Position numbers and translations under genes: made by a program. A stretch of DNA of 58,517 nt, counting the filler, from Sphacelaria rigidula (taxonomy: Eukaryota): NCBI GenBank assembly GCA_964200075.2. It is 9 parts of 9 records of this genome, joined end to end, with 100 filler letters (N's around TTAATTAATTAA, not from the genome) between each part and the next. Parts side by side here need not be neighbours in the genome. Positions count along the whole stretch, not along the records: positions 32,566 to 38,978 come from CAXNAA020020222.1; 8 more parts are not named here. One strand, given 5' to 3'. The notes beneath the pieces were generated by a model. That model was given only the letters and a program-made list of their open reading frames with translations, had not been told where the DNA came from and did no database searches. Positions 3,901-58,517 of this stretch are shown here, one piece after another (position 1 is the stretch's first letter; each line of letters opens with the position of its first letter).

Positions 3901-5974
3901 AACAGATTGTTGTTGCACAAAAAACATTGGAAAAGCGGGGCAAGTGAGGCTGTTGTGGGGTCGTGGTGCTGGACCCGGGCTTAAGCGACCACAGCGCACC
4001 TGAACGAAACGACTTGAACTTTCCACCTGGCATACCTATTTGTATTCGATTTTTGTTCACCTGATAATCTGGAAGGAAGCTTCCCTGACATGTCTGTTGA
4101 TGTGGACCGTGGCCCCCGACACGATGTATCCCACCGTGTCTTGTGTCAGGTGTCCGTCGTCGATGAAAGAGCGACCGAGTGCGTCCACAAACTCCTGTCG
4201 AAAACAACAATAAGAAATATGACAACAAGCACCGAGTCACGGAAGGTGATTTGAGCACAATACATGCACACACACACCATTCACCAGGATTAGTGTCGCA
4301 CGATGAAATCATACCATCGCGTTCTGTGGGAAAACAAAATAAGGAAGAAAGTCAGGGAAAAACGATAGGATGATGTATAAAAACCAAATGCTCGACGTAT
4401 TGGAAGGAACGAGGGATGGCGGTCCACACCAAGAGCATGACCTTTATATACAACTGCAACAGCCAAGGCCGTCGCTGCGGGGCGCGCACATACAACAGTA
4501 CAGTACCTTGATTGCCAGGAGGCCACGAATAAGGAGGTCTCTCAACCGCTGATCACATCACGTTTGTTGAGGGGGGAGGCGGGGGGCGTACTCATTTGTT
4601 GCTTGCCTTAGTCGTTCGACCATTGACCACGCATCCCTTTCGAGACGGAGCACCGTTCCTACTCCTAATAGAGACAGGAGTTGAAGGGGGAGGGGGTGGG
4701 GAGGGTGATGAGCTACTAATACGTACCCGAGCATGGTACTGTAGGTACTGGTATGGAGTTGTGTCACGGTATAATTACTTGGCCCAAACGAGTCTCACAT
4801 CGGGGTTCCTAAACTTAAGAGCCGCAAGGAGTGTTACCAGGGCGTGTCCTATTCAAATTTCATGTCAAGATATCCTTAGCTCAGTGGATTACGAATCGTG
4901 CGGCGTCTTCACATTCTACATCAATCTTTTTTCGGATGAGATACAGGGGCTCCTAACGATAGAGGTGAGAGATCTTTTGTGCACCCCCATCGCGGCGCCA
5001 CTTTATGGGTACGTCTCCCTTGTGACCACGGCTGGCTCCCTCGACATATAGGGGTGGGATCACTCAATCTACGACAATCAATCAATCACTCACTACTGTA
5101 CGGGTGTGTCAGATAGGGTATACCCGATACTGTTGGTATTTTGAAAAGTAAGTGGAAATCTGACTCATACCCTGTTGTTCTCCTCTCCACACCCCATACA
5201 AGTCATTTGTGAGTGACTTGGGCAAATGATGTGCGCCTTTTCAAAATACCGAAGTATGGGGCACACCCTACCCGACAGGTTCATGCGACGTTGTACTCGT
5301 GTGACCGACCATGCAAAGCTTCCAGAAGAAAAAGTTGTGGCTGGGTACAAGCACAGCGCAGTGCAATACTCCCACCTACACTACAAGGCGGGGGGAAAGA
5401 CTAGAACCTTCCATCTCTAAAGCACGAAAGATCTTCCGGGTCGCGGACTGGGTTTCTGTCACACACAATACAAGTCAGACAACGCGACACGCTGAGAAAA
5501 AAAAGAGCCTAAAAATCATCAAGTGCGCACACTACATACAGCATAGTACAGTATACAGTATTATAAAGTGCACACACTACCTCGTACCTTGAGTGCCAAG
5601 AGGCTGGTTTCGAGAGCCTTCCAACCACTCGTATCATCCACTGCAACGTTTTCCGCGCCGGTGATTACGTCCGTTATGGTCTCCTTCGCCCGTACGAAGT
5701 TTCTGCTTATAGCGCCGAGGAGCCGCTCCCTGAAGAAGACGTACACCGCCAGACCAGTGCAGTCTCCGCCATCCTCCTCTCCCGCATTGGCGGTGCTCTC
5801 GTTCATGACTTTGTTACCTTTATCGCTGTTGCCAGCGCGGGTCAAGGCACCCAGGGTAGCAGCGACGAGCGAGCGTACACGAGGCTCGGAGTGCTCGAGG
5901 TGTTGGTCGCAGTGAGCAAGAAGGGAACGGAGAAAGGACGGGCTCAGGCTTCGTCCAGCTTGGTCCACCATTGT
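998..5974 (-). CDS. Partial spliced gene, HEAT/ARM-repeat-like helical protein (exons 5588-5974, 1712-1936, 998-1187)
   Basis: Three protein-like segments with AG/GT borders: ...EHSEPRVRSLVAATLGAL...DDTSGWKALETSLLALK; SILDACG...MQDNWSQVRYAASVANRSLL...LLPRMCLNR; YYLADGVKLYSQETW...DNHCVRESACHSIAEMAEK. The CG|G junction at 1712/1187 is in phase. D/N-x-x-VR-x-A motifs are HEAT-like. The 5588/1936 junction is out of phase (see findings). Confidence 0.75.
4588..4679 (-). mobile_element. Short 3'-end copy of the same LINE family
   Basis: Reverse complement of 35290-35376. Flanked by a 14-bp TSD gttga(g/a)gggggagg at 4566-4579 and 4680-4693. Confidence 0.85.
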
Positions 5975-6413: not shown

Positions 6414-6513
6414 NNNNNNNNNNNNNNNNNNNNNNNNNNNNNNNNNNNNNNNNNNNNTTAATTAATTAANNNNNNNNNNNNNNNNNNNNNNNNNNNNNNN
6501 NNNNNNNNNNNNN
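6414..6513. other. Artificial 100-bp contig spacer (also 12927-13026, 19440-19539, 25953-26052, 32466-32565, 38979-39078, 45492-45591, 52005-52104)
   Basis: N-run + TTAATTAATTAA (stop codons in all six frames) + N-run, with an exact 6513-bp period. Confidence 0.98.
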
Positions 6514-9280: not shown

Positions 9281-10124
9281 GGTACCCACAAAACCAAAAG
9301 GACGACTCTGCGGCAAAAAACACAAGTGAACAACGGCCGTGCCCGCAGGGACGCCACCAGGAGAGGGGAAAGGGGGGGGCGAATGCAAGGTCAGCCGTTT
9401 GAGTGCGACGTCGTGCAAAAACCACGTCAAAAACCACGTCAAAAGAACTTACTTCTGGGGGGGAAACGCCTGCTCCAAGAGTGGCGCGGAGAAACGTGAG
9501 TTTTGCTTGAAATGGGTTATGGGGTGTTTGTCCTGTGGCTTCTGCCAACAATTGCATTGTTTGGTTCTTTTTGTCTTGGCTGCACTGGTATAAACATGAC
9601 GCGCTGTGTGTACGTACTTTTTAGCACCGCTGCAGCCGAATTGCAGGCAAAATCCTGTAGTGTACCACTACTGTACTGGGCATGATTTTCCGAACCGAAA
9701 CCAACCGCTTCATTATGTAGAGTAGAACAGAACCAGTTCCACCTTCCCCTAAAGCCACGTGTACATGGGATGCACGAGAAGTGAACCATTCGTCCGGTGA
9801 AATTTCGGTACCGTGATGGCGGGGTATAGCAACCACGGTGACAAGGTGTCCAACCTCGATCGATTGTGTCGAGAAGCGAGGCTCGTCCGCCGCCGGACCA
9901 TTCAGTTTGTGGGCAGATGTAGATGGTCACGTCTGCAATTGCACTGGATCTCTCACTTGAGGCGACGTGGCCGACGCCTTCTTCGAAAAAAAATCAGGGT
10001 TGGCAGCTGGCCACTGGGCAGTACCGTAGATCACAGTCAGTGCAAAACATTTAATTTGAGTATTTGCCAGTGCATTGTGTCACACACCCTGGTCACAGTT
10101 CTAGAGTCATGCCCCCCATATAAA

Positions 10125-12300: not shown

Positions 12301-13071
12301 TCGATGATCAGCTGTAATGAAGTAGACTCACAGCGCTCCAATGAGGTGCAAACGAGCGGATTTAGGTAAACACCGCAGATGAGCACGAGAAACTGCGTGC
12401 GGGCGGAAGTCTTATTGGTGTTGCATTTTGACTTAAACGACTGAACCCATGCTCTGGCCTAGGAAACCAAAAAAATCCCGCCTGACCGTTGTTTAATGGA
12501 TGCTATGTCCCAGGTGGTCACATTCTCCTCTAACAACGTGATGTTCATCTGTACAGTACAACAGAGTTTTTTCGCGAGGCTCTCTAGAGTATGAGTCTCG
12601 GCCATACACATGAACACCAAAAAACAGACAATCAACCCCATCGGCGCACATCCTTGTGCCCCCCCTTTGTAATTACTACAGCAGCAAGTACCGTACTTCA
12701 TTTCCCCTGCCTCTACCCTAGCCCACCGGAAATCAAGAAGTCCTCTATGAGAAGTGTGTGCCATCCTGCCGCTCGATTGTAGTAACCTCTGCCTACCGTG
12801 CGCCCAGAACCCTCCCATACATGACAACAACCTAGACTCTCCCCAACCCCCCCCCCCCCCCCCCCCCCCCCCCACCCCCCCCCACCCCCCCAACCCCCCC
12901 CCCCCCACACCCCACGCAAACCCACCNNNNNNNNNNNNNNNNNNNNNNNNNNNNNNNNNNNNNNNNNNNNTTAATTAATTAANNNNNNNNNNNNNNNNNN
13001 NNNNNNNNNNNNNNNNNNNNNNNNNNTTCAGTAAGACGAATCTCGCGTTCCATGTGTTAAATGCTCTTTAA

Positions 13072-22900: not shown

Positions 22901-25850
22901 TCTCAGATCAAAGTCAAGCAAGCGAAGGAAGACACCAAACCTGCTACCCGCCGCGTACACTTTGCCCCATCGGCTCCCACCCCTCAATCCAGTGATCCTT
23001 CCCCCTCTTCCACGGACCGACAGGCACACATTCACGCTGTACGCCACCAGTACAAGAACGTGGACCCGACATTTGTAGGCAAAGTCAAGCCTTCACTACC
23101 CTTTCCTGCGGGATCTGATGTCAGCCTTTCTTACAGCCAGTTACGACAATCCCTCACTACTGTAGTTACTGATATCCTCTCACACTGCGACGATACATTT
23201 GTCGACCTTGAGACCAGAGATTGGGTAGATGGCTGGCTTCGACCTTTACAAAAAGCTTTGGAGGATGCCATCGATTTCAGCTCTCCCGAGGCATCTAAAT
23301 TCTCCAACATGCTCGATCACCACTTCGCACAAGCCGCACGCTCCCTCACCCTCGGTAATGGCGGGTACGCCGCTTTCACCCTCCTTCTCAGACTCATCAG
23401 TTCATCCCTGGACACCACCCACGAAAGCGAGTCACTCGAACGCCTACTATCGTTTAAGGTACCCGTCGACACCCCTTTTGACCACTACCTCAAGGAATTT
23501 CGCACTTTAATTTCGGTTAGGGTAAACGGTGGCAGCGAACCTGTCCCACCACAAGACATGGTGATGAGTCATTCCGTTCCAACATGTGACGCCAGTACTC
23601 TAGCTTCATGCCAACCGCCTTTGTCGGTACCGCAGCTACTTCACCGGTCCCGTTTCCAACCTTGGAAGCTATGTGGACGAAATTAGATGAACTCTGGTCC
23701 AACCGCATTCCGGCATTAGATGTGACGGATGCAAAAAAGAGTGGCTCCTCCGTAATTCACAACGGCCTCTCTGTACGGCACAGCCACAACGCTTCCGCCA
23801 CCCTTTTGCCTCACCCGGTTGCCGCCCCCCCTGCGTCTCACTCCCAACCACCACCTTCTAAGACAAACCAACGCCCATGGATTCCTGCGTCTATGGCCTT
23901 TACTGGGGAGGTCATGTTCGCACACACCCCAGACGCATTCAACAGTCGTTTTCCAAGCTGGCCCTTCGCGACGGAAATTTGGCCGGAAGTGTTTCAGGTA
24001 AGCACTTTGATAAACACAACAGACCCCCCCCTCTGGGCCAGTAACAGAGACCCTCACCTTCGATCAGATGTAATTCGCCGCTGCAAAGATCACTGCCTGA
24101 ACTGTGGCACTTGGTTCAATCCTCAAACGGGGTACTCCGCAAATGGTCAAGTTCCAACGCACTCGATGCGCTAATGCGAAGCCCCGTTCACGAACGCATT
24201 TGGCGTACTCAACCCCGTGTTCTCCGAGTCCCAGTTTGCGTACTTTTGGCCAACTTGGCCAGCACGTATGCGGTCTTACCGTCGCCCTCAACCCAGCGGC
24301 GCCCGCAATTCATAACAACGCCCTCGGCGCAGCAATCGCCACTGTAATGGTGACACTCGCACCCCCCTCAATACCAACATTCCCATTATCACGATCAGCC
24401 CGCTAACGCGGCCCCCTCTCACGTACCCCCCGCCCATTCTGGCGCTTTTCAACCGCCAAACCAGACTCAACACCCAAGTACTCCTAGCCCCCCTACAAAC
24501 ACATCTACTGCCCCGAACACAGCCCGCCACAATGGGACCCACAACTCTACCGATGTCAAACGTACCACCTGACGGTGTTTGGGAAACGCACAACATCCCG
24601 CGTTTCCAAACCACCGACGGGGTACCTCTACGTGTGTGACCGCTTGAAACACTTCGCCGTCACCCTCTTGACATTTTGATGAGCCTTCCACTTCAAACCC
24701 CATTGTCGACCACAGGTCCACAGTTGGGCCCCAACAACCTTCAACAACAAACCGCGGCAATACATTTTCTCTCCCTCAGCCAGTGCACCATCACCACTTA
24801 ACAAATCCTCGTCGGCCAGCGTGGGTTCTCGCTTGTGGTGTGGGTACGCTAGCGTTGACCGTTCTGTCATGACGGGTTCCATGACAGCACAGTCCCGTGC
24901 AACATTGCATGACTCCCAAATACGCAATGACCAACCCCAGTGTTTTCATACCGGATCTGATCACCCAGTCGTATTTCCGAGTGGTAGTAATCAATGCCAG
25001 TTGGATCCGATCGCCCCGCGGGATCGGCAGTCGTGTAGCGCAGCGCCTACCGTCTTAGATGCAGGTACATCTTCTGATACGGTAGCTGTTACCCCTACGA
25101 CCATTCATCGTAGGATGCAACGTTTACAGAGACTCCCCAGCCCCGAGAAGGACTCAGGAGTCCAGTTGACCCCGGTAACACATGCGTGCGAAATTCCGCG
25201 CGTGCCTGGTCCCCTTTTATTTGGTAAGCGTAATTCTTCGTGCACTACGCGCGCCAGTGCCGAACCCTTGCTTTCCGTAGCTCAGCGGGTTGGGAAGGAA
25301 CCCCAAGCGACAGTGCCGACCAAGCGCCAAGCGTGTAGCCACGAACGGACTGAACTTGTCAACTTCCCCAAAGCCCCTGGAACAGCCGGCTCTAGAGTGC
25401 GCTGTACGCGACACCAGGAGAGGGCTCTTCCGGATGAAACTGTAAATAAACCTGTAGTTGCCGCTGCATCCGCCCACCAAGAAGGTGCCCGGGTGCCGGG
25501 CACAGCGGATGAACGCTTTGTCGTAGACCAGGTCGGTGTTTCCCAGATCCCAAACAGATCAGCACCGCTTCCTGCCGACCCCTCGGAATCTATGGTGACG
25601 AATAAAGTAGCGTTGACATCTGTTGGGACAGTAAACCCGCTACGCCCTGCAGGTATGTCTCATGGTGCCGGACAAACCCCGGCTGTGCCGTCAAAATTGC
25701 AGTCCAATCAGGACTGTTTCTCCCCTGTTTCTCATAGCTCCAAACAATTATTGCAAACATCCATATCCACTTTCTTTCCTAGGCGTCGTCCATCCCTGAC
25801 TGTGTACGAAATCCAACTTTCGTCTACTGCACCACACGCCCTACAAAAGA
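20000..25850 (+). mobile_element. Degenerate LTR-retrotransposon-like element: LTR-like end, PBS-like motif, long frameshifted gag-like ORF
   Basis: ...ataaca then gttggagctcccgc at ~20298. Overlapping intronless ORFs from 21230-24600 are linked by frameshifts and stops, and include a coiled coil and CLNC-X18-H-X4-C. No pol domain is visible and the boundaries are approximate. Confidence 0.55.
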
Positions 25851-26091
25851 AACTTTCTACGATAGCCCCCCCCCCATAAAAGTGCATGGTTTTCGGAGGC
25901 AAAATCTTCACGTAAATCGAAATGGGAAAGCCGAGCACAACGAGAAGCTGGGNNNNNNNNNNNNNNNNNNNNNNNNNNNNNNNNNNNNNNNNNNNNTTAA
26001 TTAATTAANNNNNNNNNNNNNNNNNNNNNNNNNNNNNNNNNNNNNNNNNNNNGAAATACAGAGAAAGAAGAAAGAGTGTTGGGTTTGCGGG

Positions 26092-29816: not shown

Positions 29817-30026
29817 GTGTGGGAAACTCTACGAGTCTATCACATGTGAGGGGCTCACAGTATGAAAGGAACAGTAGCTGCTGTGCGTGGCGTTCTTCCA
29901 CGATGAGCAGTGTACACTGTTGTACACTACAATACTGTACTGTTCTGACTGGCACAGGCAGTGGATTGCAGCTGCAATTTAGGTGTTTGGCTGCATTAAC
30001 ATCCCCCCACAAATAACACCTTCTAT

Positions 30027-30083
<57 letters not shown>

Positions 30084-30835
30084 ACCCCCCCTCCTCTCTC
30101 CCCTCCCCCCGCTCTCATTTTTTTTTTTCTTTTTTTTTTCTTNNNNNNNNNNCAATTTAGGTGTTTGGCTGCATTAACACCCCCCCACAAATAACACCTT
30201 CTATCCCCCACCCTCCCTCCCTCCCTCCCTCCCTCCCTCCCTCCCTCCCAACACATGGCATCTACGATGCTATGGTCCTGCAATCGTGCACAGTTTAATT
30301 ATTCCGATTTTGTCTTTCGACAGTCTCGAGATTTTTTTGGAATATGTTTTGGTATGCGTACATGAACGCTAAATTGACATCGGCTGTCATAATTAGACCC
30401 TAGACCGCTAGGGCGGCGCTAGGGCGGATCTTTCGTTGAATGAGTATCATTTCTATTTGAAAAATAAAAGACCCATTGAACACCCGGGCCCCCGTTAGTT
30501 GGATGCTGAAGGACAACCTATCCTGGGCGGGGTTCGGGCTCCGCGCTCATAGGGCAACTACCCTCCGCATACCTCTGCATTGAACTACATTCGCTGCGAG
30601 TGACTGACGGAAACTACCGGTCATTTCTGCGTCACGAACGGCAAAAAAAGGAAAAATACTTCAAAGCAGCTATGATTCGGTGCCGAACAAATCGGGGCAT
30701 CTCTCGATATACGAGGGCGTTACAACGATCCACAGCTTGAAGGAATACCCTGGATACTAGCAAAAGGTGTCATGCATCTATTGTTGCCCGCCCCGACGGC
30801 ATTTGGCGTACATTTTTCCCTGAAGATGAGCCGAA

Positions 30836-31429: not shown

Positions 31430-32400
31430 TGGCCAGATGAACGATTTGCCAAAGATCCCACGAAGTCCTTGAGAGGTATCTCCCAGAAAATACACACCGA
31501 CGATCTCAGAGAAACACGGTAGTAATATACATATTGAGTTCTTCACCAGGACAACGAAGTTAACCCGCAAAAAGGACCAGGCAATGCTATACCAACGCAT
31601 CAAGTCCTCAGAAATGGAAGGAAGAAGGGATGTGACACAACCTACATCAGGAGCGCGTCTGGCGAGCTGTTGCGGGACAAGCAAGCTATCCTATAGTGGT
31701 GGAGAGAGTGGTTCGAGACGTTTGAGCGCAATCACGCCCACCCTCGACACCTCTGTCATCGATCTCATCAGACAGACACTGGAGCACGCACCGCTCGCGG
31801 CCGAGCCCTCGATGCAGGAAGTCAAGGAAGTAGTGGACAACTTGGCGAACAGCAAGGCCGTTGGGACTGGCAACCTGTGTGTCGAACTTTGAACTCGGCC
31901 TCACCGAGGACTCTGCCATACTAAAGTCCTTTCATAACCTTGTGCTCACAGTGTGGGGTCAGGAAGTAGTACCACAGGAATGGAAAGACGCTGTCATCAA
32001 GGTGTTTTTCAAGAAAAATAACTCGTACAAATATGGCAAGTGCCGCGGCATCTCGCTAGGGTCCCACGCGGGCAATGTGACTATCAAGATAGCTTCGATT
32101 CTCCAGCGCATGCTGCGAGTGGAACGAAATCCTACCACAAGTTTAGTGCGGGTTCCGACCCAGTCCGTCAACAGCCGATATGATATACGTTGTACCCAAA
32201 CTCCAAGAAGTGGCCGCAGAGAAAATTCTCCCGTTGTATGTGTGCTTCATGGACCTCCAGAAGGCCCACGACTCAGTCGACCACTCTCTTCTCTGGAAGA
32301 TGCTAGCAGGATGTGGCGTCCCCACCGGGACGATTTCCATCATCGGCCAGTTCCACGACGGCATGCGAGCGTGCGTACACCTTGACAGCAACAAGGCTTC
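31430..32400 (+). mobile_element. Degenerate RTE-like LINE ORF fragment (linker and RT N-terminus)
   Basis: EPSMQEVKEVVDNLANSKAVG, VPQEWKDAVIKVFFKK, CRGISL, LYVCFMDLQKAHDSVDHSLLWKML...GVP, with frameshifts. Confidence 0.85.
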
Positions 32401-32842
32401 TACGAGCTGGGCCGGCCAAGACGCCAAACGCTCGCCAATATGGCTGTGCCCCGCCCATTTTTTCGNNNNNNNNNNNNNNNNNNNNNNNNNNNNNNNNNNN
32501 NNNNNNNNNTTAATTAATTAANNNNNNNNNNNNNNNNNNNNNNNNNNNNNNNNNNNNNNNNNNNNGGAAGAGTTTGAATGCACAAACGATTAAAAGCCCA
32601 TAACGGACTTTACTTATGGGACAGAGGAAGTGTACAAACAAACCTGCACAAAAAAACGACATGGGTTTTAGCAAGTAAGTGTGAAAGTTCATGAAGTCCG
32701 TACCATCCACACCAAATCGAAACATAGGCCTGAATGAAGCAGTGGGACCATACATGTTGCAGTGTGGCGACAATACAGCCCAGTTATATGTGCGGGTCTG
32801 AGCGACATGAGGTCTGTTTCATTCATGCTTTCCTCTCGACAG

Positions 32843-35563
32843 GTGGGCGGGATAAACTCAGCGGCCTGGCAAGACGCAATAGTGGACCAGATTTGCGAGC
32901 GGATGTTTGTGGCGATGGGGGCCGGCAACGTTCAGGCGGCGTTCGAGTACTTCGATGTGGATGGGGACGGGAACATAGAGTATGAGGAGTTTGTCAACAC
33001 GCTCAAGGGGCTCAACATTGGGCTCAGCGATGAGCAGGTACTTTTGTAGGGTACCAGCACTACGGCACATTCGGGGTCACAGGTGACATGCAGTAGTGCG
33101 TAGATCATATTCGGATGTACACATGCCACCGCGATCCATTGGTCTGCCTTGTGTATGTTCAAGCCGGCTCACGCGGACAGGTTGAGGATCGGAACCTCTC
33201 AAACGATTATGCTCTTGTTCTGAAAAGTACATGATTTCTGTCGTCGGAAGCGCGCGGACGTATGCAGCAAAAAGAACGCCGGCGGAAGTCGGTGTACTAA
33301 TCTGACCCGCTAGAATCCGCGATACTGCACCACCATACGGGCGTCAGAAATTTACCCAAAAAAGAGATAGCTCGATCCCTTTAGGCGTCAGACTACTCGT
33401 CCCGAGTCATGCTACGATAAGGGAGGGGGGTGTTCGATTCCGCAAAACAATGGGCTCGTAACTGCTTCAGACGACGTAACACCCTCGCGGTGCGCCTGTA
33501 CTTGGGCAAAGGCGGTGTCAAGAAGTATCGTTTGAATGGTAGGACATCCGTGAGGCAGTGTGTAGCCCGTGGTTGTTTGTGGAAGTTGTGATATTAGAAA
33601 AAGAAAGCAATTCATTGGAGATTGCCATCCATATGCAAGGTAATAAGCATGCTTCGGGCCGAAGAATCTTAAAAGGATGCAGCTCACCCCTCATACGACT
33701 CATCATCGAACACATCACGTCGCTTCACGCTTGGTGATTGATTGCGAGCCTAGCCCGGAGAAATCCCGCGTGTTCCGCCCCGGCTTTGTAGGGGTGCGAG
33801 GCAAACCGCAATATGATTCGACCTGCAACATCACGAGTACAACCCCCCCCGCGCGCGCGCGCCCTCCCTTGTCGTATTCGTCGGGGAAATATCGAAATAT
33901 TTTTCATTTTTACATAAGGATGCACTCTATCACCCACTTTGTTCAAGGTATGTATTAATGGTCTGATAAAAGCAATAGAAGCAGCAAAACAAGGAGTCAA
34001 GGCGGGTGAAGATGCGGTACCAGGATTGATGTTCGCGGATGATTTCATGGGGATATCAGAAACACCAGAAGGATTGTAAAAGCAAATAGAGAAGGCGCTG
34101 GAATGCACTAGGACATGGAGAGTGACAGCGAACGTTAACCAATGCGCGGTACTTGTATGTAACGAAGATAAGAAAATCCGGTAGAGTCTAAATGGAAGTG
34201 GGGAGAAGAAGAATCGCCGAACGTAGACCAGTATATATACCTCGGCGTAAAGATCTCGAAAATCTGTTCTTGGGATGCACATATAAATAAAGTAATGTAA
34301 ACGAGTAAAGTACGGATACGTAGGATGGGTGCGATCCTCGGAGACTCGTACCTACATACTAGGATCAAGAGATGTAGTTTTGATAAATGTGATCGTACCA
34401 AGGCTGGAATACGCGGGAGAAGTATGGGGAGGGAACGCGACGTTGGTGAAGAAGTTGGAAACAGTACAGATGGCAGCAGCTAAGAACATGCTTGGATGCT
34501 CGAAAACGACGAGTAATACAGCATTGAAAGCAGAGTTGGGAATGTACACACTTGAACCAAACAGAGACAAGATAAAATTGAAATGACAACATAGCGTAAA
34601 GAGCGTGACAAAAAAAGGGATTGCCAGCCATAGTTGATAAGGCTGTATGAAAGAAAATGACGAAAGGGCAGGCTGGAATGAGGTGGCATAGAGTATTCGA
34701 GAAAGTATGGAAGGAGATAGGAGGAAACAAGGATGACATAATGTCCATAGGTGAATGTGGGGGGTACAGGACAAAAGTAAGAGACATGATGGACATAAGG
34801 GCAAAAAAACGCTCTGACGCAAAGTAGGTAAGCCAAAACACCTGAAGATATATGACGGGTTAACAGAGGGGATAGGGATGACAACACATCTGCATGGTCC
34901 AATGGACCTATGCGAAAAAAATTGAAACTGCGATTTTGGATGAGGGAGCTGGATCTGCCAGAAAGAAGAAGGAGGTTTACCAGTCGTCAAAAGGAGGAGG
35001 AAGTAGAGAGACAGAATTACCTCCGTGGCAAAGCAATAGAGAGCAGAGATCATACAGTGGCAGAATATGAATTATACAAACAGGAACGGGACGTTCTAGA
35101 AGGGATAATGCGGGGAGTAAACGAAGGTGGCATGAAATCGTTCAATGCATTAGACAGTAGGGACAAACCTGTGGCTATACTAGGAGATAGATGATGTCCA
35201 CAGAGGGCGAAACAGGACGGGGGTAGGATATGTTCGAGGTTTCGTGTAATGTATGAAAAAATCGTGATGGGCGTCAAAATGTTGGAGGCGTCTATATTAG
35301 GAGTAGGAACGGTGCTCCGTCTCGAAAGGGATGCGTGGTCAATGGTCAAACGACTAAGGCAAGCAACAAATGAGTACCCCCCACCCACCCCTTGTCGTAT
35401 CGTCCGTTGCTTTTCCCATCAAATCTCTGTCCTTTTGATCATTGGAAACAAGATTTTTGAGCTAATGCGTGGACTAGACAAGGATTGCGACAGCACCATC
35501 GATCTGCAGGAGTTCGCTTCCAGATTCGAACCAGTATTTACACGCCTTAACGCCAAACAAGAT
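32843..35563 (+). CDS. Internal exons of an EF-hand calcium-binding protein (32843-33037, 35453-35563; possible further exon 38013-38110)
   Basis: AFEYFDVDGDGNIEYEEFVNTL...LSDEQ|IFELMRGLDKDCDSTIDLQEF forms an EF-hand pair, with phase-0 GT/AG junctions. Confidence 0.88.
33520..33830 (+). repeat. Dispersed repeat, reverse copies at ~38600-38905 and ~46697-46780
   Basis: Shared sequence, e.g. gcaattcattggagattgccatc vs gatggcgtcctccaatgagttgc. Confidence 0.7.
33883..35376 (+). mobile_element. 5'-truncated degenerate LINE (RT C-terminal half plus 3' end) in an EF-hand gene intron
   Basis: RT motifs GCTLSPTLF, GLMFADDF, YIYLG, VPRLEYAGEVW, with stops and frameshifts. TSD cccttgtcgtat(t)cgtc at 33866-33882 and 35389-35404. 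Confidence 0.9.
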
Positions 35564-42400: not shown

Positions 42401-44306
42401 GGTGATGGGTTGGCGCGGGTCAGGCGGGGAAGTGGTAATGCTAAGAGGCTGTCGGGAAGTGGACCAGATGGCGGGCTGGAGGATGTCGATGATCTGCAAG
42501 AGACGGAGCAAGAGGAGCACGAGGCTGCGGTTACAGAAGTAGAGGATGGCAACCACGATATCGGCTCCGCGGGAACTGCTCGAACAGGTTTGTCAGCGTT
42601 GTTGTCACGTCAACATAGTGCGTGCGTCTGTGTGTGTGTTGTGTTTTTCTCCACAGCTGTTTTCGGTGTTCGGTAGGTGGCCTCAGACACTTTCTACGAT
42701 AGCCCCCCCCCCCCCATGAAAATTGCCTGGTTTGGGAAGGCAAAATCTGCCGAGCACAACGAGCAGCTTGGAGTTCCCACGCTTGGGTTTGTTCTCGCCA
42801 ACAATGTCGCCATGTGAGGCGCTCCATGCAGCCTGACCCCAATCATCAGGTGCTGTATGGCCATATTTTTCTTGGCACTTTTGGGCTGGCTTTGGGGGTG
42901 GGCTATCGTAGAAGGTGTCCTCATTGGTCAAGTGTTGGATCTACCATGTATGAAGTATTAGATGTACGATGCTTCTGGGTTGGTGTTTGCGGGCTTACTG
43001 ACTTTGTTCATCTTCGGGCTGTATTGTACAGGCAAGATGAGGGTATGATACACTACATTGTGCTGCCCTAGAAGAAGTATGTATACCTTGAGGTTGGGCA
43101 TTGCCATACTTCATACGTTTGTTGGGCCACCTGCCGCGCCGTTTTAATGCTGTGGGCTCGTCGACAATGTAGGAGGGTGGGAGAAGGCGAAAGGGGACGT
43201 GACAGTAGTGGAGGAGGACGATGATGCGCGCGGTTATAGTGGTCACCGTCGCGCAGGTGTTCTGTCATGGTGTTGTGCGTGAAAATAGGTCATCATTCAG
43301 TGGGTGGGGGGTGAAGATTTCACTCTGTGTTCGTGTGTCTTATTTTGCTCCACATATGTGTATGTTTGTATTTTAATCGTTTTTCTCGCACCGACTGACA
43401 AGCCGCAGCCGCAACGGATCCACAGACCGTCCGCCCTTGTTGGTACAAGATGAGGTATACGTGTGGGTTTACGAGCAAATTGCGGCACTACGGTGATTTT
43501 CACCCTCATTGGCTGCCCCGTCTCCTTCCCTTCTCCCCAGGCCTCTGATTCCCGGCTATACCCAACAATTACTCCGTCTTGGTCGTTACTGTTGTTGTCA
43601 AGAACGATGAATTTCGGGGACTATTCGAGGAAAACCACGATGGTGATTTCTGTGATCCAAGCCCTTGCTATCGCTGAGGCATTTTCGGAACTAAAGCCGG
43701 TCGCCCCGGTGGCTCAGTTGGTAACCTCGAAATCTTCTGGCGGTTGGGTCGTGGGTTCATTTCTCGGAGCGATCCGGAATTTTTCCTCAAACCATGCCCA
43801 AGAGTGGAGAGCGACTATGTCGTGGGTACACAAAATTCGACTTCACGGTCGACGAGGGAAAGGGACTGGTGAACCCCTCTCGCGAAAAAAAATAAAAGGG
43901 AAGAACCGCAGGAAGGTGGAGTACTGAAAACAAAGAAACAAAAAAACTCCTGTGTTGACCTTCCTCCTGTGTGACCCCGGCTGGTGCGCCCACATACACC
44001 GAAACGGTGTAGACCGGGGTCCAGAATAAATGGGACGACAACACAACACACACAACACTTTACACGAGCACATGATGGAATTCATCTCTTGTTCTGTGAT
44101 GCTCCTTTCCCCTTTCGCCCTCCTTCCCTCTCCCCCGTCACAAACAATACATATATATGTATATATATACGATGGTGCCAGCAGCAGCAGCAGCGGCCGC
44201 TAGCATGTCCTCCTTGCCATCTCGCGGCAGGGGTGCCCTGCTCAGCCCGACGGGCACACCGACCACAGCATCAAGGCGTTCGGGACGCACCTCCTCGACG
44301 GCTGGG
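39417..44306 (+). CDS. Internal exons of a low-complexity/disordered protein (39417-39688, 40616-40851, 42151-42587, 43173-43256, ~44182-44306)
   Basis: All junctions are GT/AG and phase-compatible (0, 2, 1, 1). A CTCACTAAC branch point precedes 40616. The translation is S/R/G/D/E-rich with no stops. Confidence 0.65.
40190..40393. mobile_element. Palindromic MITE, Mutator-like
   Basis: ~90-bp arms (aagggtagatcgagtagagtatactca / tgagtatactctactcgacctgccctt) with flanking direct repeat aaaaagtgc(a). Confidence 0.75.
42686..42919. mobile_element. MITE with GACACT/CTTCTACGATAGCCC TIRs (truncated copies at ~25850-25952 and ~58432-58517)
   Basis: Inverted termini and a CTCA direct repeat on both flanks. 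Confidence 0.75.
43696..44058 (+). mobile_element. tRNA-derived SINE, full length
   Basis: gccggtcgccccggtggctcagttggt ... gggacgacaacacaacacac. Confidence 0.85.
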
Positions 44307-47631: not shown

Positions 47632-50245
47632 CCCCCCCCGCGCGCCCGCCGCTGTCGGCCGTCATTATCCACTGTTGAACTGGTGGAGGGTCATTCTCCA
47701 CTGTTCAGGTGTTTCGCCTGATGTAGTGTCGCGTTCGTTCTTCACCGCCACCCAAAACACATGACGCGGCAGAGTCGAAGAAGTGAACAGAGTACACAGT
47801 CACCATGATGCTGATACGTAGCTGTAGTAGGTCTCTGAAGGGATGTCCTCTACGGAAGTCTGGCTCAATTCCACGCAATTGCATTGCACAAACCAGCGAT
47901 GGACGCCTCTGCCGCAGTAGCTCTGGCGGGATGCTCGTATATGTACAAGCCGAGGAGTCATTTTCCGATGTTGCCGTCCGACATGCGGCTAAAGATGACT
48001 GACACTGCACCATTGTCAGTACGCTGAAGCTCTGTACACACATACACCCATGTACTAGTCATCATCCAAGGCCAAGATTGCACCAGTCAACCCTGGACAT
48101 AATGCAATATTTTTTGGTCGATAACTTTCACTCCATGTCGATATTTTCATCTTCGGCAAGGGTTCAAGCAAGCTACATTTCTCCGGTTTGTACATACATA
48201 TATATATATGTCGATACCGTTGTAATTTTTTTCGGAGTGTGTATGGGTGTAACTTAATACCTCTTCATTTTCTTGCTGTGCCGCGTCTTGTCTCCACCAA
48301 TTTGTTTATTTCTGTTTTGCCGTGTTAACACAGGGACATACATCGTACGTCAACACTGCCGTGTACATGGGGGACGGGGCCAAGGTCGTGACTGGATCAG
48401 CAGACGGCACCGTTAAGGTAGACTCGAGTTTTTTATTTTTATTTTTTTCCTCCTTTTTTTCTTTCTGTTGCTGTCGCCGTCGCCGGTTCTGTTACTACTT
48501 TTCTTTCTATTTCTCTCTCTGCCTCTGTTTCTGTTTTTCCTTTTATATATACTCCGTATATATTTTTGGCGCTCCTGGGCCGAACGGTTGACGACCAGCA
48601 GGCTGCCCCCCCCCCGGACATGATCCGTCTCGAAAGGGATGCGTGGTCAATGGTCACACGACTGAGGCAAGCAACAAATGAGTACACCCCGCCCCCACCC
48701 CCGACATGATAAGACATGGTCGTAAGGATAAGAGTCAAGGTCGAAATGATCTTCTAGTGGAGGAGAGGGGTGATGAATGCCCCAGTATGGCTTGTGCGAT
48801 TGATGAAAGATCACGACGCACCGATGTAAAGCGAGGGGGATAATTACATACTACTATATAACAAGGAGGACACATGAAGTCCGTAGATGCATGGTTGTCG
48901 ACCGCCGCCTGCCGCCCCGACTCCAATCCTATTCCCCGATTGCCGGCCCCGGATACTTCGTTCGCTCACTGCATACACTCGCCCCTTGTTCGGATGTTGA
49001 CGTAGGTGTGGGACGCCAAGACCACGGAGAACGTGCACACCTTCCAACCGGCCGTCTCTATAGGATCTCACACCGAGGCGAGCGTGCATACCGTCTTTCC
49101 GCTCCCGGGCTCGACGGAGCAGGTCCTGGTATCCAACCGAACGTCCACGGCGTTCCTGTGTACCCTGCAGGGGCAGGTCGTGCGGAGTTTCACAAGTCCG
49201 AAGGTATAACTCGCGGAGAGCTGTTGCTTCTGTTTATACCGGGCATCTTATTCATTCGTACTTCCGTGTGAAAGGTTTTTTTCCTTGTTCTTTTTTCGAA
49301 AGTGCACACCTTGGGCCGGGCCGATCCGGTCCGGTCCGGTCTATCTTGTGAGAAGCTTACACCGTGTTCAGATCCGGTCCGGTCCAGTATTGATTTCATT
49401 TCGTATGTGTATGTGTTTTACACCTTGGTTCGGTCCGGTATATGGTATCGTCCAGTGGGTTCTGCGCATGGAAATGACGCCGTCGTATGTGGATAAAATA
49501 AACTCACTGTCTTCTACTTCTCATTATTCTTCGTTACGTGACTTTTTGAGAAATATAAAAAAATGGTCAATGCGTGTTTCATGTCTGGGTTGCTTTTATT
49601 ATATCGCAGTGTGTTTTTACTCGTCGGTTATTGCTTGTTGTTTTTTTGTTTTCTCATTGCTTGTCTTTCCCGATTTTTCTCTGTTCCCCCCCCCCCCGGA
49701 ACATTAGATACCAGCAAGGAAAACGGTCGCCGTACTAGGAGATATATGGTGGCCACAGACGGCGTATCGACAAGGGCATAAGATATATAAAACGTTTTGT
49801 GCAATGTATGGAAGACTCGTAATGGGCAGCCAAGTGAAGGTGTCTCTATTAGGAGTAGGAGCGGTTCTCCGTCTCTAAAGGGATGCGTGGTCAATGGTGA
49901 AATGACTTAGGCAAGCAACAAATGAGTATGCCCCCCCGCCCCCCCGCCCCCGCGTTCTTCCGAATCTTGAACAAAAAAACAAAAGCAAAACGGATATTAG
50001 AACTTCTGCTAGACCCGACCCAATGCCCAATGCCCAATGCCCCCCTTGCGAAAAAAAACAACAACGTTTTCTCAGACGGTTCGCGCAGACTTCACATGTG
50101 CGTGTCTCTCTCCCAAGGGGAGATGGGTGTACTGTGTAGGCGAGGATGGAGAGATGCTGTGCTTCGATGTAGCCACGGCGGAAATGGAGCGTTCGATGAA
50201 GGTCTCGGAAAAGGAAGTCATCGGCGTCGCGCATCATCCTCACAG
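46873..50245 (+). CDS. SMU1: WD40 spliceosomal protein SMU1, C-terminal exons (46873-47058, 48334-48417, 49006-49203, 50076-50245)
   Basis: [31 protein letters not shown]...[23 protein letters not shown]...[15 protein letters not shown]...QVVRSF...|...[15 protein letters not shown]...[13 protein letters not shown] is recognisable as SMU1. The final exon was not found in this contig. Confidence 0.95.
48625..48685 (+). mobile_element. Short 3'-end copy of the same LINE family (SMU1 intron)
   Basis: ccgtctcgaaagggatgcgtggtcaatgg...gcaacaaatgagtac, with TSD ccccc(g)gacatgat on both sides. Confidence 0.85.
49700..49928 (+). mobile_element. 3'-end copy of the same LINE family (SMU1 intron)
   Basis: Aligns by eye to 35145-35376, with C-runs on both flanks. 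Confidence 0.8.
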
Positions 50246-53200
50246 GTGCGAGCAGGAAAGGGACACGACCTGGGGGTATGTGAGGGGTGTGTGATCGATC
50301 TTACTCGAAAACCTGCCCACTCTGGATAATGACGATAGATTGTATTGTCAGAAAGTGTACTGCATACAGAGTGGAATATATTGTCTATTGCAATAGACAC
50401 GATGGTCGATACTGTACGCAGTACACTTTTTGACGATGTAATCTATTGCCGTTATCCAGTGTGTGAAAACCTCAGTGCCTGGAAGTTGACGAGGTTCGGA
50501 CACTGAGTTCTGGACTTGAACGGGTGTTGGACTCCGACTTGATTGGATTTGCTTTGTTTCGCGTGACGCTCTGAACACATCCCGCCACGGAGGCCAACAC
50601 CCATCGGTGTTGGATGTTTATCTCTTTGCTTGTGGTGGTGCATACATGCCTGTCGCCGCACATTAACGGCATTGTTTAGCGTCGACTGGGCCCGCGGTTA
50701 TTGCGTGCTCCGGGCTGTACCCAGTGTTGCGGTGTATGTATGTACATACAGTACAGTACATACATATATACGATTATCGCCCATGTGCCGTCAAAAGGTG
50801 CTCACGTCGTCAGGTTTAGTTATCATTTTCGTCTATTGGATCGATGACTCTATTTCCCACTTTTTTTATTGTTGTGCACAACAGTATGGACCATTTAGCT
50901 CATGTACCGACTTCTATTTTGTTTCTCCCCGATTTTTTTCTTTTCTTTTTTCATCTCAGATATAAGGTCGATCCCCTCATCCCCTATACTCTGACTGTAC
51001 ATGAATATGCTTTTCTGTGTTCATCTTACGGTGTTCTTCCATTTGTGCTTTATTTGCATCGGGGTATCGTCGTGTGTGGGCGTTTGTCGCTGTGTTTATG
51101 GGTACCAATGAAAATGCGCTTGGCCATTGCTTAGGGTTGTGCTTTCCGAAACTCCCCCATGCACCCATGTTTGTGTGATTTGATTTATCGATTGATTGAT
51201 TGTTGCGCATTACAGGCTGGTTTACGGTTATCAACCCTAAAAAACACTCATCCGTAAAAACTCACGCTTTTTTTTGGAGTTAGACCCTGAAATTTTGCAC
51301 AAATATACAAAATGGGTTATGACGCAACTTTCGAACGTCAGAGTGTACAACAGTTCGCCTTTTTTTCACCGTTTTTTTCGGGGGTCCTAGGGTTTTGGGG
51401 GAAAACTTGGATTCCATCGGACCACGGAGAACGGTAAAAAGTTAAAAAGCACAAAAAAGATCGTCCATCGAAACTCCCATCGTGACCTATAGCACATTTG
51501 TGCAACATCGCGCTTTTGTGCAAAGTTTTCAGGGTCTAATAAATAAAAACGGCGTATAGCATTTGTGCCATGACGTGAGGTTGAAACGTGCAAACTCCAA
51601 TCTGCTTGGTTTCAGTATGAAAACGTCTTTTTCGGGTGTATTTAACGTCAAGGCGAGAAAAAATGTGTGAGGTCTCTGCGTTTCTCAACCAAACTTTGTA
51701 CATATGTTCCTTGAACTACCCCGGGACGCATCATTTCGTGTTTCTTCTTTCGAGGCATTCTGTACCGTCTTCCGGGGGTGTTCACGCTGGGGCCTACGGA
51801 ACTGCCAAGTTTGAGGGCGACCTGAGTCTTGCTAGGACAGATATAAGGGAAACCGTTACGAGGCTCCCTGGGTCTTTCGCTTCCATTATCAGGGTGGAGC
51901 TACACGTCGATATCCTGCCCAGGGATATCAAGGGCCTCAGTGGCCAACTATTGCAGAAAGCATGTTGGGCCTCGGGGAAGTGCATTTCGGAACGGAAACG
52001 ATTCNNNNNNNNNNNNNNNNNNNNNNNNNNNNNNNNNNNNNNNNNNNNTTAATTAATTAANNNNNNNNNNNNNNNNNNNNNNNNNNNNNNNNNNNNNNNN
52101 NNNNCGTTTCCGGTGATGAGATATTGCTCTGCCAGGTTAAATCGGTTTCTGGGCTGGCCCAGCTCCTACTGGACATCGTGGAAGGGCATTTCGGAACTGA
52201 AACGGGTCATGCACTAATTGACCGCTTTCCATTCTCAATCGTATCCTTTACCCTCAATCTCACAAAAACCCTGTTTGTAGTGATGGCTTGGCTGCTATCA
52301 TCACTGCTGTCGCTGGTGCTCGGGGGCAGTCAGCGTTTTGGTTTATTGTCCTTCGTTCGCCAGTAACGTGATGGCCCTTACCCCTTACCCCCATGAGAAC
52401 AAAACAGGGCTGTGTCCATCACGAGTGCTGGCAGACACTCTGCATGTAGGTTAGCTGCCCAGCAATGTAGCTCAGTTCATGTCTGCATGCAGCGTGTTGC
52501 AAACAGCACTCGAATACAGNNNNNNNNNNGCTCCCAAGCCCTGTAGATACTACAGCAGTAGCACTACTGCTTATACTGTAGTCTTGTGTGCACGGTCAGT
52601 GCGGTCCTGTCTCTTTAAATCTTGGGTGCGTGGGCAGTCTGTACTGCATCGCGAGTGTTGTTCGCATCGCGCGTGTTTCATAAAAAAAATGGAAATCACT
52701 GTCTGCGCTTTCGATTTTTTTGCGCCGGGATCCTGACTCGAAACATTCGCCGACAAGCGGGCAAGATCACCCTCTGCGACACAACAGACACGGAGCGATC
52801 GGTGGTGATGCGTGGTGTTGGCCGCAGTGCGTTCTCGCACGCAAGATCAAGACATCGCTGGCCGTAATGTAATCAAGACTGTACTAGTTACATTCACTTC
52901 GAAGAACACGTGCTCAAAACTGAAATGTGACGAAGAAAAGCATGGTATATAAAGATGTTGTACGGGCTGATGTCCCATCCGAACGACGGAAGCATGGTAA
53001 CATAAACCATGAACACCACAGAGTAAGACCATGCTGCGTGCGGCTCACCCCGACTAAATGTACGCAGCCGATCGTCTCTGCCCATAACCCCATCCCCACC
53101 CCCGATCAATGATCTCTTCCTCCTTCTNNNNNNNNNNCGCTCCGTTTCCGGTACTCGTCAGTCATCTCCACTTTGGGCAGCTGCTGTTGCGGGCATCTGC

Positions 53201-57540: not shown

Positions 57541-58517
57541 GACGACTACAGTGGTATAAGCAAAATCAATGGGCTTAGGCACAATTCTGTTAGTCGGTGA
57601 GAGAGCAAAAGTATAAAGCGGAAGAAGAGCAGTGAAAGTGAGATATCATCGATCAAGTCTGAGACAGTAGATCAAAACAAGAGTAGACACGACTCTACAG
57701 CCGAGAACAATAACAACTTTCACGAGCAAAGTAAATAGCGGCAACAACAGCAGTCATATTTACGACATAAAGCAGCGTGTATCAAAGAGATACTACTGAG
57801 GATCAAGAGCATAATAGACTCATCATTAGGCGAACAGGTTCGATTTAAGCAGAACAAGCCATGCCCAGCGAGTAAAAACATGAGATCAGTTCGATCACCT
57901 GTGTACCTGAACAGTAGATGGGTAGAATTGCCTGCATACATCAACGTCAATAAAGATAGACATATACGTGAAATAGAAGAGGCACGACCGCACAATGGTT
58001 TTACATCCAAACCACCTCGAGTAATGCAAACAGCAGGATTGTGAATCTCCAGCGACAAGTAATTACGGAGCAAGAACAAATCCGACAAGCATTCGACCGT
58101 CATGGATAACAGCGACGACGTCGACACCAAGAAGCAGCCGACAAACATACTGCAGACTAACATTTGACGTATTTTGTAGAGACGTGTAACTCGTGGAGAA
58201 TAAGCATCATCAACGACGGCGTAGTGGAACGACGATCGAGTGAGGAGCAACAAGACAAGAGAGCAACTTCGACAGCATCAACGAGGGATGACTCAGTGAG
58301 ACTAGCAGATACGAGTCTTCGATTTGTTTCAATCGTTACGAACACCATTCTCATGAGATTCAGAGCGTAGTATCTGATTCAGAGTGAGACCCGAAACAAT
58401 CGACTTTCCCGTCGATTTTGACATCGCCACAGACACTTTCTAAAATAGCCCCCCCCCAAAAAGTGCACGGTTTCGGGAGACAAAATCTTGACGTTAATCG
58501 AAATGGGAAAGGCCGAG

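Follow-up and report, generated by a model that had tools for sequence, protein, structure and literature searches.

Truncated LINE copies and their common 3' end

The window, that is, the whole 58,517-nt stretch of Sphacelaria rigidula DNA analysed here, has a GC content of about 49% and contains a PPR gene with no close match in Ectocarpus (best 37% identity). An 18-mer, GCAAGCAACAAATGAGTA, occurs in it four times (4589-4606 on the minus strand, 35359-35376, 48667-48684, and 49911-49928), where 0.05 occurrences are expected by chance and 0 of 100 shuffles reached four or more. Each occurrence closes a truncated piece of a non-LTR retrotransposon (LINE). The features of the four copies, including their target-site duplications (TSDs), are as follows.

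33866..33882, plus strand: 5' TSD of copy 1, CCCTTGTCGTATTCGTC (direct reading and blind TSD scan)
33883..35376, plus strand: copy 1, a 5'-truncated and decayed LINE body, starting in the middle of the RT (FADD) and reaching the 3' module by way of the thumb and a degenerate CCHC region
35277..35376, plus strand: conserved 3' module, ~100 nt, overlapping the final 31-33 codons (lineage comparison)
35371..35373, plus strand: stop codon TGA of the LINE ORF, followed by just GTA(CG) and the C tail, with practically no 3' UTR
35377..35388, plus strand: tail of copy 1, ccccccacccac (direct reading)
35389..35404, plus strand: 3' TSD of copy 1, shorter by one T than the 5' TSD (direct reading and blind TSD scan)
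48606..48624, plus strand: target of copy 2, C10 (48606-48615), g, then the unique part of the 5' TSD, GACATGAT (48617-48624)
48625..48684, plus strand: copy 2, the final 60 nt of the element (sequence reading and blastn)
48685..48702, plus strand: tail of copy 2, caccccgcccccaccccc (direct reading)
48685..48710, plus strand: the same tail and then the 3' TSD of copy 2, GACATGAT (48703-48710)
49686..49697, plus strand: C12 adjoining the 5' end of copy 3 (direct reading)
49698..49928, plus strand: copy 3, the final ~230 nt of the element, older and more diverged (sequence reading and blastn)
49929..49954, plus strand: tail of copy 3, tgcccccccgcccccccgcccccgcg (tg + C7 g C7 g C5 gcg; direct reading)
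4680..4705, minus strand: C-rich target tract of copy 4, ccctccccaccccctccccc (4705-4686), then its 5' TSD TTCAAC (4685-4680)
4589..4679, minus strand: copy 4, the final ~90 nt of the element (sequence reading and blastn)
4588-4571, minus strand: tail of copy 4, cgccccccgcctcccccc (direct reading)
4566..4588, minus strand: the same tail and then the 3' TSD of copy 4, TCAAC (4570-4566)

A blastn search of the window with 33883-35376 as the query returned four copies of the module in all, the query itself included. Copy 4 aligned at 4675-4589 with 97.7% identity over 87 nt, copy 2 at 48621-48684 with 95.3% over 64 nt, and copy 3 at 49720-49928 with 78.8% over 212 nt. The copies are 1494, ~231, ~91, and 60 nt long, sharing their 3' end and differing in the point of 5' truncation, and 0 of the 4 carry an A tail. 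Both the reading and the blastn search therefore bear out the original prediction of four copies that have one 3' end (...GCAAGCAACAAATGAGTA) and run into a C-rich tract with no A tail. These 3'-coterminal copies with varied 5' truncation, together with TSDs of variable length in three of the four, show the hallmark of LINE insertion.

Copy 1 is the longest of the four. Its 5' end corresponds to approximately residue 840 of a relative of 1328 aa (P0009), with GEISKY encoded at its very start (33883-33900), and a tblastn search with this full-length relative spans 33918-35370 (E about 1e-94), aligning aa 847-1328 over three reading frames and crossing 14 in-frame stops. The Pfam family RVT_1 matches 33918-34079 with an E value of 5.5e-5, under the gathering score, and this match and the tblastn alignment substantiate the non-LTR reverse transcriptase that had been read in the long copy. 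The frame at 35257-35373 terminates in ...TKASNK, as P0009 does.

Full-length relatives and the Ectocarpus catalogue

Searches for additional copies gave three loci in a scan of metagenomes and one in a scan of genome contigs, all of them long and with 5' ends that lie beyond the contig, and none in a scan of viral contigs. Two relatives define the complete protein. P0009 contains an Exo_endo_phos domain at aa 142-383 (E = 8.1e-15) and RVT_1 at aa 710-959 (E = 1.7e-32), and the contig L006 has an uninterrupted ORF with 71% identity to P0009 across aa 1-1328, its stop codon standing 5 nt ahead of a C13 run and being the same TGA as in copy 1. The APE-type endonuclease was identified in P0009, to the full length of which the L006 ORF aligns, and is missing from the truncated copies of the window. 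The intact element is ~5 kb or more, with a single ORF that encodes an N-terminal region, Exo_endo_phos, RT, thumb, and a CCHC motif. Past its C13 run, the 3' flank of L006 is G-rich rather than C-rich, and within its first 1300 nt no convincing TSD was found, the 7-mers there being at chance level.

The last 100 nt of the element are 87-96% identical between diverged lineages versus 67-81% in the 100 nt upstream. This conserved 3' module is presumably a cis element recognised by the RT, judging from its conservation. Folding of the single sequence gave a z score of -0.37, with 65 of 200 shuffles folding equally well, and folding of the alignment showed a compensatory change in 0 of 21 pairs; a CGUCUC-GAAA-GGGAUG hairpin in the module is possible, and neither fold test supports it. 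Rfam and ARAGORN returned no matches and no tRNAs, respectively. Another repeat, at 33534-33844, was considered as a SINE partner and rejected, as its 3'-end likeness to the LINE module was matched by 296 and 224 of 2000 shuffles. A diverged copy of the module also lies antisense in the interior of L006, with no C-run at its 5' junction.

Copy 1 has its nearest named homologues in proteins of the brown alga Ectocarpus, with 72-74% identity over the thumb, and P0009 is 92% identical to one Ectocarpus protein. The transposable element table of the Ectocarpus genome describes RTEX-1_Ec32 as 'single EN-RT ORF; (C)n 3'' with 'C-rich' TSDs, annotates RTEX-2_Ec32 with '(C)n termini/TSD', and notes that RTEX-N1_Ec32 'can be present in tandem' (PMC12477816, Genome Biol 2025, supplement 1). 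Among the 11 LINE rows of this catalogue, (C)n or C-rich notes are confined to RTE-X rows, and the best blastp hits of the (C)n-tailed families are RTEX-4_NV and RTEX-1_BF, while RTE-1_Ec32 is listed with (CAA)n and CRE-1_Ec32 with (CA)n (PMC12477816, supplement 1). The catalogued RTE-X families with such notes have 1062-3812 copies each, and the main text of that paper does not discuss the C tail or targeting (PMC12477816). Our literature search on poly(C)-tailed or poly(C)-targeting LINEs gave nothing relevant beyond this catalogue and no mechanistic study; the RTEX passages of two papers (PMC5753468 and PMC10294476) contain nothing about tails.

The features that mark RTE-X in Ectocarpus, namely a single EN-RT ORF, a (C)n 3' end, and C-rich TSDs, were all found for the element described here. 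RTEX-1_Ec32 and RTEX-2_Ec32 have these three in common with it, and also a great abundance, tandem arrangements, and short non-autonomous relatives (RTEX-N1 and RTEX-N2) that end in a common 3' end; the host genome differs, and the elements are compared here through their descriptions. We therefore favor, with a probability of roughly two in three, the reading that an APE-type non-LTR retrotransposon, of the sort that the Ectocarpus catalogue lists under RTE-X, left these four sequences as dead copies, truncated at their 5' ends, after integration in the way set out below. Membership of the RTE-X clade, or of the named Ectocarpus families, would follow from the notes of the catalogue. The element is an added member of a kind already catalogued and not a new kind. 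The original prediction had implied novelty and had stated that an existing library description would remove it; the Ectocarpus table, which already records (C)n 3' ends and C-rich TSDs, is such a description. Other parts of that interpretation (a non-LTR family with no poly(A), (C)n ends, and TSDs that begin in a C tract) stood, and the flanks seen in public contigs agree with it.

C tails, target-site duplications, and C-runs at the 5' junctions

In all eight copies examined (the four of the window, L001-L003, and L004/L006 from public contigs), GAGTA is followed by the C-rich tail, which opens with CG in five of the eight. The TSDs were likewise found where they had been proposed, starting in C's and extending into unique sequence in copies 1, 2, and 4. 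The pair of copy 1 reads CCCTTGTCGTAT(T)CGTC and was recovered independently by the blind scan. In copy 2, C's precede GACATGAT on either side of the insertion, and in copy 4, cctccccc stands ahead of both (T)TCAAC repeats, while copy 3 has no unique TSD. A scan of the window for exact TSDs of at least 11 nt behind C-runs recovered copy 1 as the sole C-tailed, TSD-bounded insertion; the remaining matches were rejected: one was a sequence duplicated next to an assembly gap, another a tandem repeat, and the others A-rich words expected by chance.

A C-run had also been claimed for every 5' junction, and this holds above chance for copies 2, 3, and 4 and not for copy 1. A C-run of at least 10 within the 25 nt upstream is found at only 0.38% of window positions; the runs at copies 2 and 3 are C10 and C12, respectively. 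The 25 nt upstream of copy 4 contain 17 C (P = 0.004). For copy 1, neither the longest C-run in this interval (3, P = 0.24) nor its 10 C (P = 0.10) is significant; its TSD begins in ccctccc, with a C8 run 16 nt upstream. Between C-run and element 5' end there are about 2, 6, 9, and about 16 nt across the four copies, and the TSD lengths vary, so that the single fixed insertion position of strict site-specific LINEs (R2, TRAS/SART, and Tx1-type elements) was not found. The insertion looks like an L1-style preference for C tracts and not like the fixed-site specificity of the R2/TRAS type.

We placed contigs from four public runs (X1, X2, X4, and X5) on 47700-52000, a region that covers copies 2 and 3. 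The summed depth over the copy 2 module is ~1e5 times that of the single-copy flanks, showing a very high copy number. Behind 48685/48690 the loose ends agree on a consensus of G+(C)20-26, with 86-110 contigs in each row listed for X1, X2, and X4 and no row listed for X5, and loose ends ahead of 48624 have the consensus (C)~20 + (A)ACGGTGC in 349, 328, 255, and 122 contigs, with an agreement of about 0.5. In the plurality class of genomic copies, the C's thus adjoin the 5' end directly, with no unique TSD. Among the joints listed for the four runs, none bridges copy 2 or copy 3 in the way expected of an empty site.

These 5' C-runs could have several origins. One is that the C tail is borne by the element, with no recognition of naive poly(C), and that copies land in older tails of the same or partner families, or that the RT jumps between RNAs and makes tandems, the 5' C-runs then being old tails. 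Tandem joints do exist, from the tail to the module start at 49935->48624 in 12, 12, 2, and 1 contigs, at 49951->48624 in 7 and 4, and at 48695->48620 in 3 and 1; the catalogue records tandems for RTEX-N1_Ec32 (PMC12477816), and copy 1 stands 16 nt past a C8+(GC)n that trails another repeat, 33534-33844. We nevertheless consider this origin unlikely, given that for copies 2, 3, and 4 blastn shows no copy of the module ahead of the C-run in the window, and that behind the tails the consensus gives way to unique sequence and not to a new module, which makes tandems a minority.

Alternatively, the 5' C-runs could be produced during integration, by untemplated G-tailing of the cDNA 3' end or by a template switch onto a homopolymer. 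Such an origin would suit the C12 of copy 3, which is flush with the 5' end and has no unique TSD, and the plurality of genomic copies with (C)~20 immediately before (A)ACGGTGC; C's that abut the 5' end in this way are, however, uninformative on whether they existed before the insertion. Where a unique segment is duplicated (8 nt in copy 2, 5-6 nt in copy 4, and about 14 nt in copy 1), it separates the C-run from the element, and nucleotides added at integration are expected inside the TSD, whereas the C-run lies outside. The C tract of copies 2 and 4 is therefore target DNA and not a by-product of integration, and the same holds, on weaker grounds, for copy 1; we regard production at integration as quite improbable in general. 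Simple chance in a genome unusually rich in C/G homopolymers (19 C/G runs of at least 9 nt in the 58.5 kb versus 0.32 expected) has next to nothing in its favor beyond that richness, as two of the four junctions have a C-run of at least 10 versus the 0.38% background, a third has P = 0.004, and the same pattern recurs in hundreds of contigs per run.

Proposed integration at C/G homopolymers

The mechanism that we infer to be best supported by these data is target-primed reverse transcription from the G strand, with insertion at C/G homopolymers. The endonuclease would cut the G-rich strand at such a homopolymer or next to it, and the freed 3' end of the G-run would pair with the (C)n that terminates the RNA, priming reverse transcription. 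The C tract that follows the source copy would serve as the template for this (C)n, and slippage on the homopolymer could account for tails that differ in length and contain an occasional A, G, or T. A second nick, 5-18 nt downstream, would let the TSD begin in the C's, and most copies would end up truncated at the 5' end.

This scheme has a parallel in L1, whose endonuclease nick (TTTT/AA) frees a homopolymer with which the complementary homopolymer tail of the RNA pairs. L1 has two ORFs, and its tail is poly(A), added by polyadenylation and hence untemplated. The element described here resembles L1 in TSDs that open with the nucleotide of the tail, in 5' truncation, and in the mobilisation of non-autonomous partners, but it probably belongs to another RT clade, and it ends in a (C)n tail that has to come either from a template or from the RT itself. 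Other LINEs use simple repeats: UnaL2 ends in (TGTAA)n, and Waldo, Mino, Kibi, Koshi, and Dong target microsatellites. With these, our element shares the lack of poly(A) and a short 3' repeat that corresponds to the target or is able to pair with it, and presumably also the recognition of a conserved 3' module by its own RT (the 'stringent' type). It differs from them in that the repeat unit is a single nucleotide, C, and the insertion point is variable with respect to the tract.

To our knowledge, almost all LINEs terminate in A-rich sequence or in a short microsatellite. A (C)n tail combined with TSDs that start in C's is therefore an unusual variant of target-primed reverse transcription, and it offers a natural system for asking whether pairing of tail and target or the specificity of the endonuclease chooses integration sites. 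A bolder proposal, which we put forward tentatively and consider possible rather than probable, is that the LINE and the genomic C/G homopolymers amplify each other, with (C)n·(G)n tracts serving as specific landing pads, a templated (C)n replacing poly(A), and each integration adding or lengthening a tract. If so, RTE-X activity would explain the ~60-fold excess of long poly(C)/poly(G) runs, and the element would be the first LINE with demonstrated specificity for C/G homopolymers, with its RT-recognition module within the coding sequence. In the window, 17 of the 19 long C/G runs have no recognisable module adjacent to them.

Since the feature is already in a curated library, the practical value of the present description is limited. 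The (C)n RTE-X elements and their short partners are among the most abundant repeats of brown algae (PMC12477816), and they may influence how many long C/G homopolymers a genome carries; runs of this type tend to slip and may adopt G-quadruplex or i-motif structures.

Run X1 differs from the window by ~3% (23 differences in 665 nt), and its contigs start inside the tails of both copy 2 and copy 3, indicating that these two insertions are common to the window and to a ~3%-diverged relative.

A LINE that ends in C's

The window holds four copies of one LINE 3' end, and a blastn search with 33883-35376 matched exactly these four. All share the end ...AAATGAGTA, followed by a 12-26 nt C-rich tail that contains occasional A, G or T but no A run. 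The shared 3'-terminal 18-mer occurs four times against 0.05 expected, and none of 100 shuffles reached four. Together with the reading of the tails, this bears out the original prediction of four copies ending at one point and running into a C-rich tract.

Copies and target-site duplications (TSDs) in the window
Copy 1, 33883-35376 (+): TSD at 33866-33882 and 35389-35404, CCCTTGTCGTAT(T)CGTC, also recovered by a blind scan
Copy 2, 48625-48684 (+): TSD of C's followed by GACATGAT
Copy 3, 49698-49928 (+): no TSD; C12 abuts the 5' end
Copy 4, 4589-4679 (-): TSD of cctccccc followed by (T)TCAAC

The thumb region of copy 1 (34296-34586) matched 13 proteins. Among these are four named proteins from Ectocarpus (66-74% identity) and P0009, a full-length relative of 1328 aa with Exo_endo_phos at 142-383 and RVT_1 at 710-959, itself 92% identical to an Ectocarpus protein. 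Copy 1 starts at GEISKY (33883). Its match to P0009 covers aa 847-1328, is spread over three frames and contains 14 in-frame stops, and its CCHC motif is ruined. Copy 1 is thus dead and cut off midway through the RT, and the prediction that it encodes a non-LTR RT stands for a decayed sequence. It is probably intronic, with an EF-hand-coding stretch on either side in the same orientation.

P0009 ends in ...TKASNK, as does the frame in the window; the TGA of that frame (35371-35373) falls 3 nt short of the last base that the copies share. In L006, a public contig of 5259 nt that had been wrongly binned into a bacterial MAG, an uninterrupted ORF is 71% identical to P0009 over aa 1-1328, with only GTACG between its TGA and C13. 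The adjoining stop in both cases indicates an element with practically no 3' UTR. At about 430-530 of the reverse complement of L006, upstream of the intact ORF, we also observed a diverged antisense copy of the 3' end. A short C-rich stretch follows this copy, whose 5' junction lacks a C-run; the copy may be either a nested insertion or a piece of the 5' region.

Exact-pattern scans of metagenome contigs, genome_contigs and viral contigs gave further copies on three metagenome contigs and one contig from genome_contigs, and none on viral contigs. All four end in GAGTA, CG and C8-13. A C tail is thus present in 8 of 8 copies, five beginning with CG and the others with CC, CA or TG, and we are highly confident of the element's identity and of its C tail.

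The last 100 nt (35277-35376 in copy 1) are 87-96% identical between lineages while the preceding 100 nt reach only 67-81%, which points to a putative cis-acting 3' module that overlaps the last codons; no particular RNA structure was supported for it. A VVNG peptide occurs near the C-terminus in 9 of the 30 relatives with C-termini listed. Such relatives (P0094-P0121), only ∼40% identical, keep a C-terminal G-[CR]-V-V-N-G...A-M-A peptide, which overlies the conserved nucleotide module.

C tracts at the 5' junctions

A C-run of at least 10 within the 25 nt upstream, found at only 0.38% of window positions, is present at copies 2 and 3, and copy 4 has 17 C in these 25 nt (P = 0.004). The C-richness upstream of copy 1 was not significant against window positions, so the predicted C-run at every 5' junction held for copies 2, 3 and 4 and is weaker for the long copy. 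TSDs beginning in C's were found as described for copies 1, 2 and 4.

Copies 2 and 4, and copy 1 as well, have a unique duplicated segment between the 5' C-run and the element, repeated after the tail. It follows directly that the C-run was part of the target and is not within the insertion. L1 nicks at TTTT/AA, the T's pair with the poly(A), and its TSDs begin with A. By analogy, the G strand would be nicked at or beside the C tract, and the 3' end of the G-run would pair with C's at the RNA 3' end and prime cDNA synthesis; slippage could produce the variable tails, and the RNA would owe its C's either to copying of the tract behind its source copy or to addition by the RT. The insertion point lies at varying distances from the tract (about 2, 6, 9 and 16 nt), which looks like a preference and not a fixed site. 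We consider a true preference for C tracts fairly probable, and as a whole the copies are best explained, with a probability of about 0.68, as dead, 5'-truncated copies of an RTE-X-kind LINE integrating at C/G homopolymers. Counted against the C-tract reading are the 5' junction of copy 1, the G-rich flank of L006, the antisense module in L006 lacking a 5' C-run, and the failure to see an empty site for copies 2 and 3 in the contigs of four public runs compared with 47700-52000.

These four runs (X1, X2, X4 and X5; five runs from two studies contained the sequence) also bear on whether the element inserts only into older tails, or arises by tandem synthesis. The module is clearly very abundant, with a summed contig depth over copy 2 of ∼2.6 million in X1, which is not a copy number, against ∼26 on single-copy flanks. 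Behind GAGTAC, the consensus of the loose ends is G + (C)20-26 (X1: 102 and 110 contigs; X2: 107; X4: 86). Loose ends before 48624 read (C)∼20 then (A)ACGGTGC (349, 328, 255 and 122 contigs, agreement about 0.5), so that the commonest genomic form is a ∼70-nt module flanked by C-runs on either side. In some contigs a tail passes straight into another module (12, 12, 2 and 1 contigs for the main joint), and head-to-tail arrays therefore exist; since the consensus behind tails decays to unique sequence, such arrays are a minority. At about 3% divergence from the window (23 differences in 665 nt), X1 still has contigs that begin within the tails of both copy 2 and copy 3, so both insertions are common to X1 and the window.

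Were the C's instead produced at the 5' junction during integration, the added nucleotides would fall inside the TSD, whereas the C-run lies outside it in copies 2, 4 and 1. Chance association fits poorly with the rarity of such runs at other window positions.

Integration at C/G homopolymers has a possible, speculative connection with their large excess in the window, where 19 runs of at least 9 nt stand against 0.32 expected from base composition; it is speculative because 17 of the 19 adjoin no recognisable module. Most of the runs have no recognisable repeat end of any kind beside them. Many carry on as C-runs with an isolated A or G here and there, as the LINE tails do.

Examples of long homopolymers in the window
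30028-30083: C56
47590-47630: C41
45433-45462: C30
26095-26124: G30
12847-12873: C27
19355-19378: C24

Catalogued relatives in Ectocarpus

The curated table of the Ectocarpus TE catalogue (PMC12477816) lists RTEX-1_Ec32 with 'single EN-RT ORF; (C)n 3'' and a 'C-rich' TSD, and RTEX-2_Ec32 with '(C)n termini/TSD'. Two non-autonomous families, RTEX-N1 and RTEX-N2, share this 3' end, show C-rich TSDs and 'can be present in tandem', and these RTE-X families number 1062-3812 copies each (PMC12477816). For its remaining LINE rows the table gives tails of (CAA)n or (CA)n. The term 'C-rich' is absent from the main text, whose RTE-X passages give neither tail nor target, and the RTEX passages of PMC5753468 and PMC10294476 do not mention tails. 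Our literature search found no account of a C-tailed or C-targeting LINE beyond this catalogue.

The window family fits the catalogue feature for feature, as compared by description, and its closest named proteins are from Ectocarpus; on these grounds we infer its clade (RTE-X) and family. The novelty originally proposed for a poly(C)-associated LINE is thereby lost: the element is real and unusual among LINEs, yet the features that define it had already been noted in close relatives by a published curated library (PMC12477816).

Other features of the window

A 310-nt repeat, at 33534-33844 (+) and 38907-38597 (-), has two copies 75% identical, one ending ...GAGTACAA + C8 and the other with C14 and a possible TSD (GAAAACA) in front of it. 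This repeat may likewise be a C-tailed retroposon; its 3' end and the LINE module showed no significant similarity. A three-copy repeat (25848-25935, 42685-42748 and 58431-58517) contains an internal C9-C13 run, GACACTTTCTACGATAG-(C)n-ATAAAAGTGCATGG..., and has a sharp left boundary ∼17 nt before it. At 50318-50463 lies a MITE-like palindrome of 146 nt with 73-nt arms 78% complementary, high-copy by summed contig depth (∼60,000 against ∼25 on flanks), and 51876-52000, similar to 6806-6878, is another very high-copy repeat (summed depth ∼1e6 in X1 and X2).

Blocks of 44 N, 12 bases and 44 N, at 6414-6513 and then every 6513 nt to 52005-52104, look like masks and not assembly gaps. Apart from these blocks, N10 gaps occur at 6880, 18688, 30143, 52520 and 53128. 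The gap at 30143 is flanked by an 88%-identical duplicate (29975-30071 and 30153-30249), of which one copy leads into C56 and its partner into (CCCT)n; the arrangement probably reflects two haplotypes, or a duplication made in assembly, at a homopolymer. At 31834-32465 (+) lies a fragment of another LINE RT, distinct from the first and 30-34% identical to P0009 (RVT_1 E = 1.6e-4); an N block ends it. The 605-codon open frame at 7631-9448 (-) is a pentatricopeptide-repeat protein whose best database match is a diatom protein at 37% identity, with Ectocarpus proteins reaching up to 34%.
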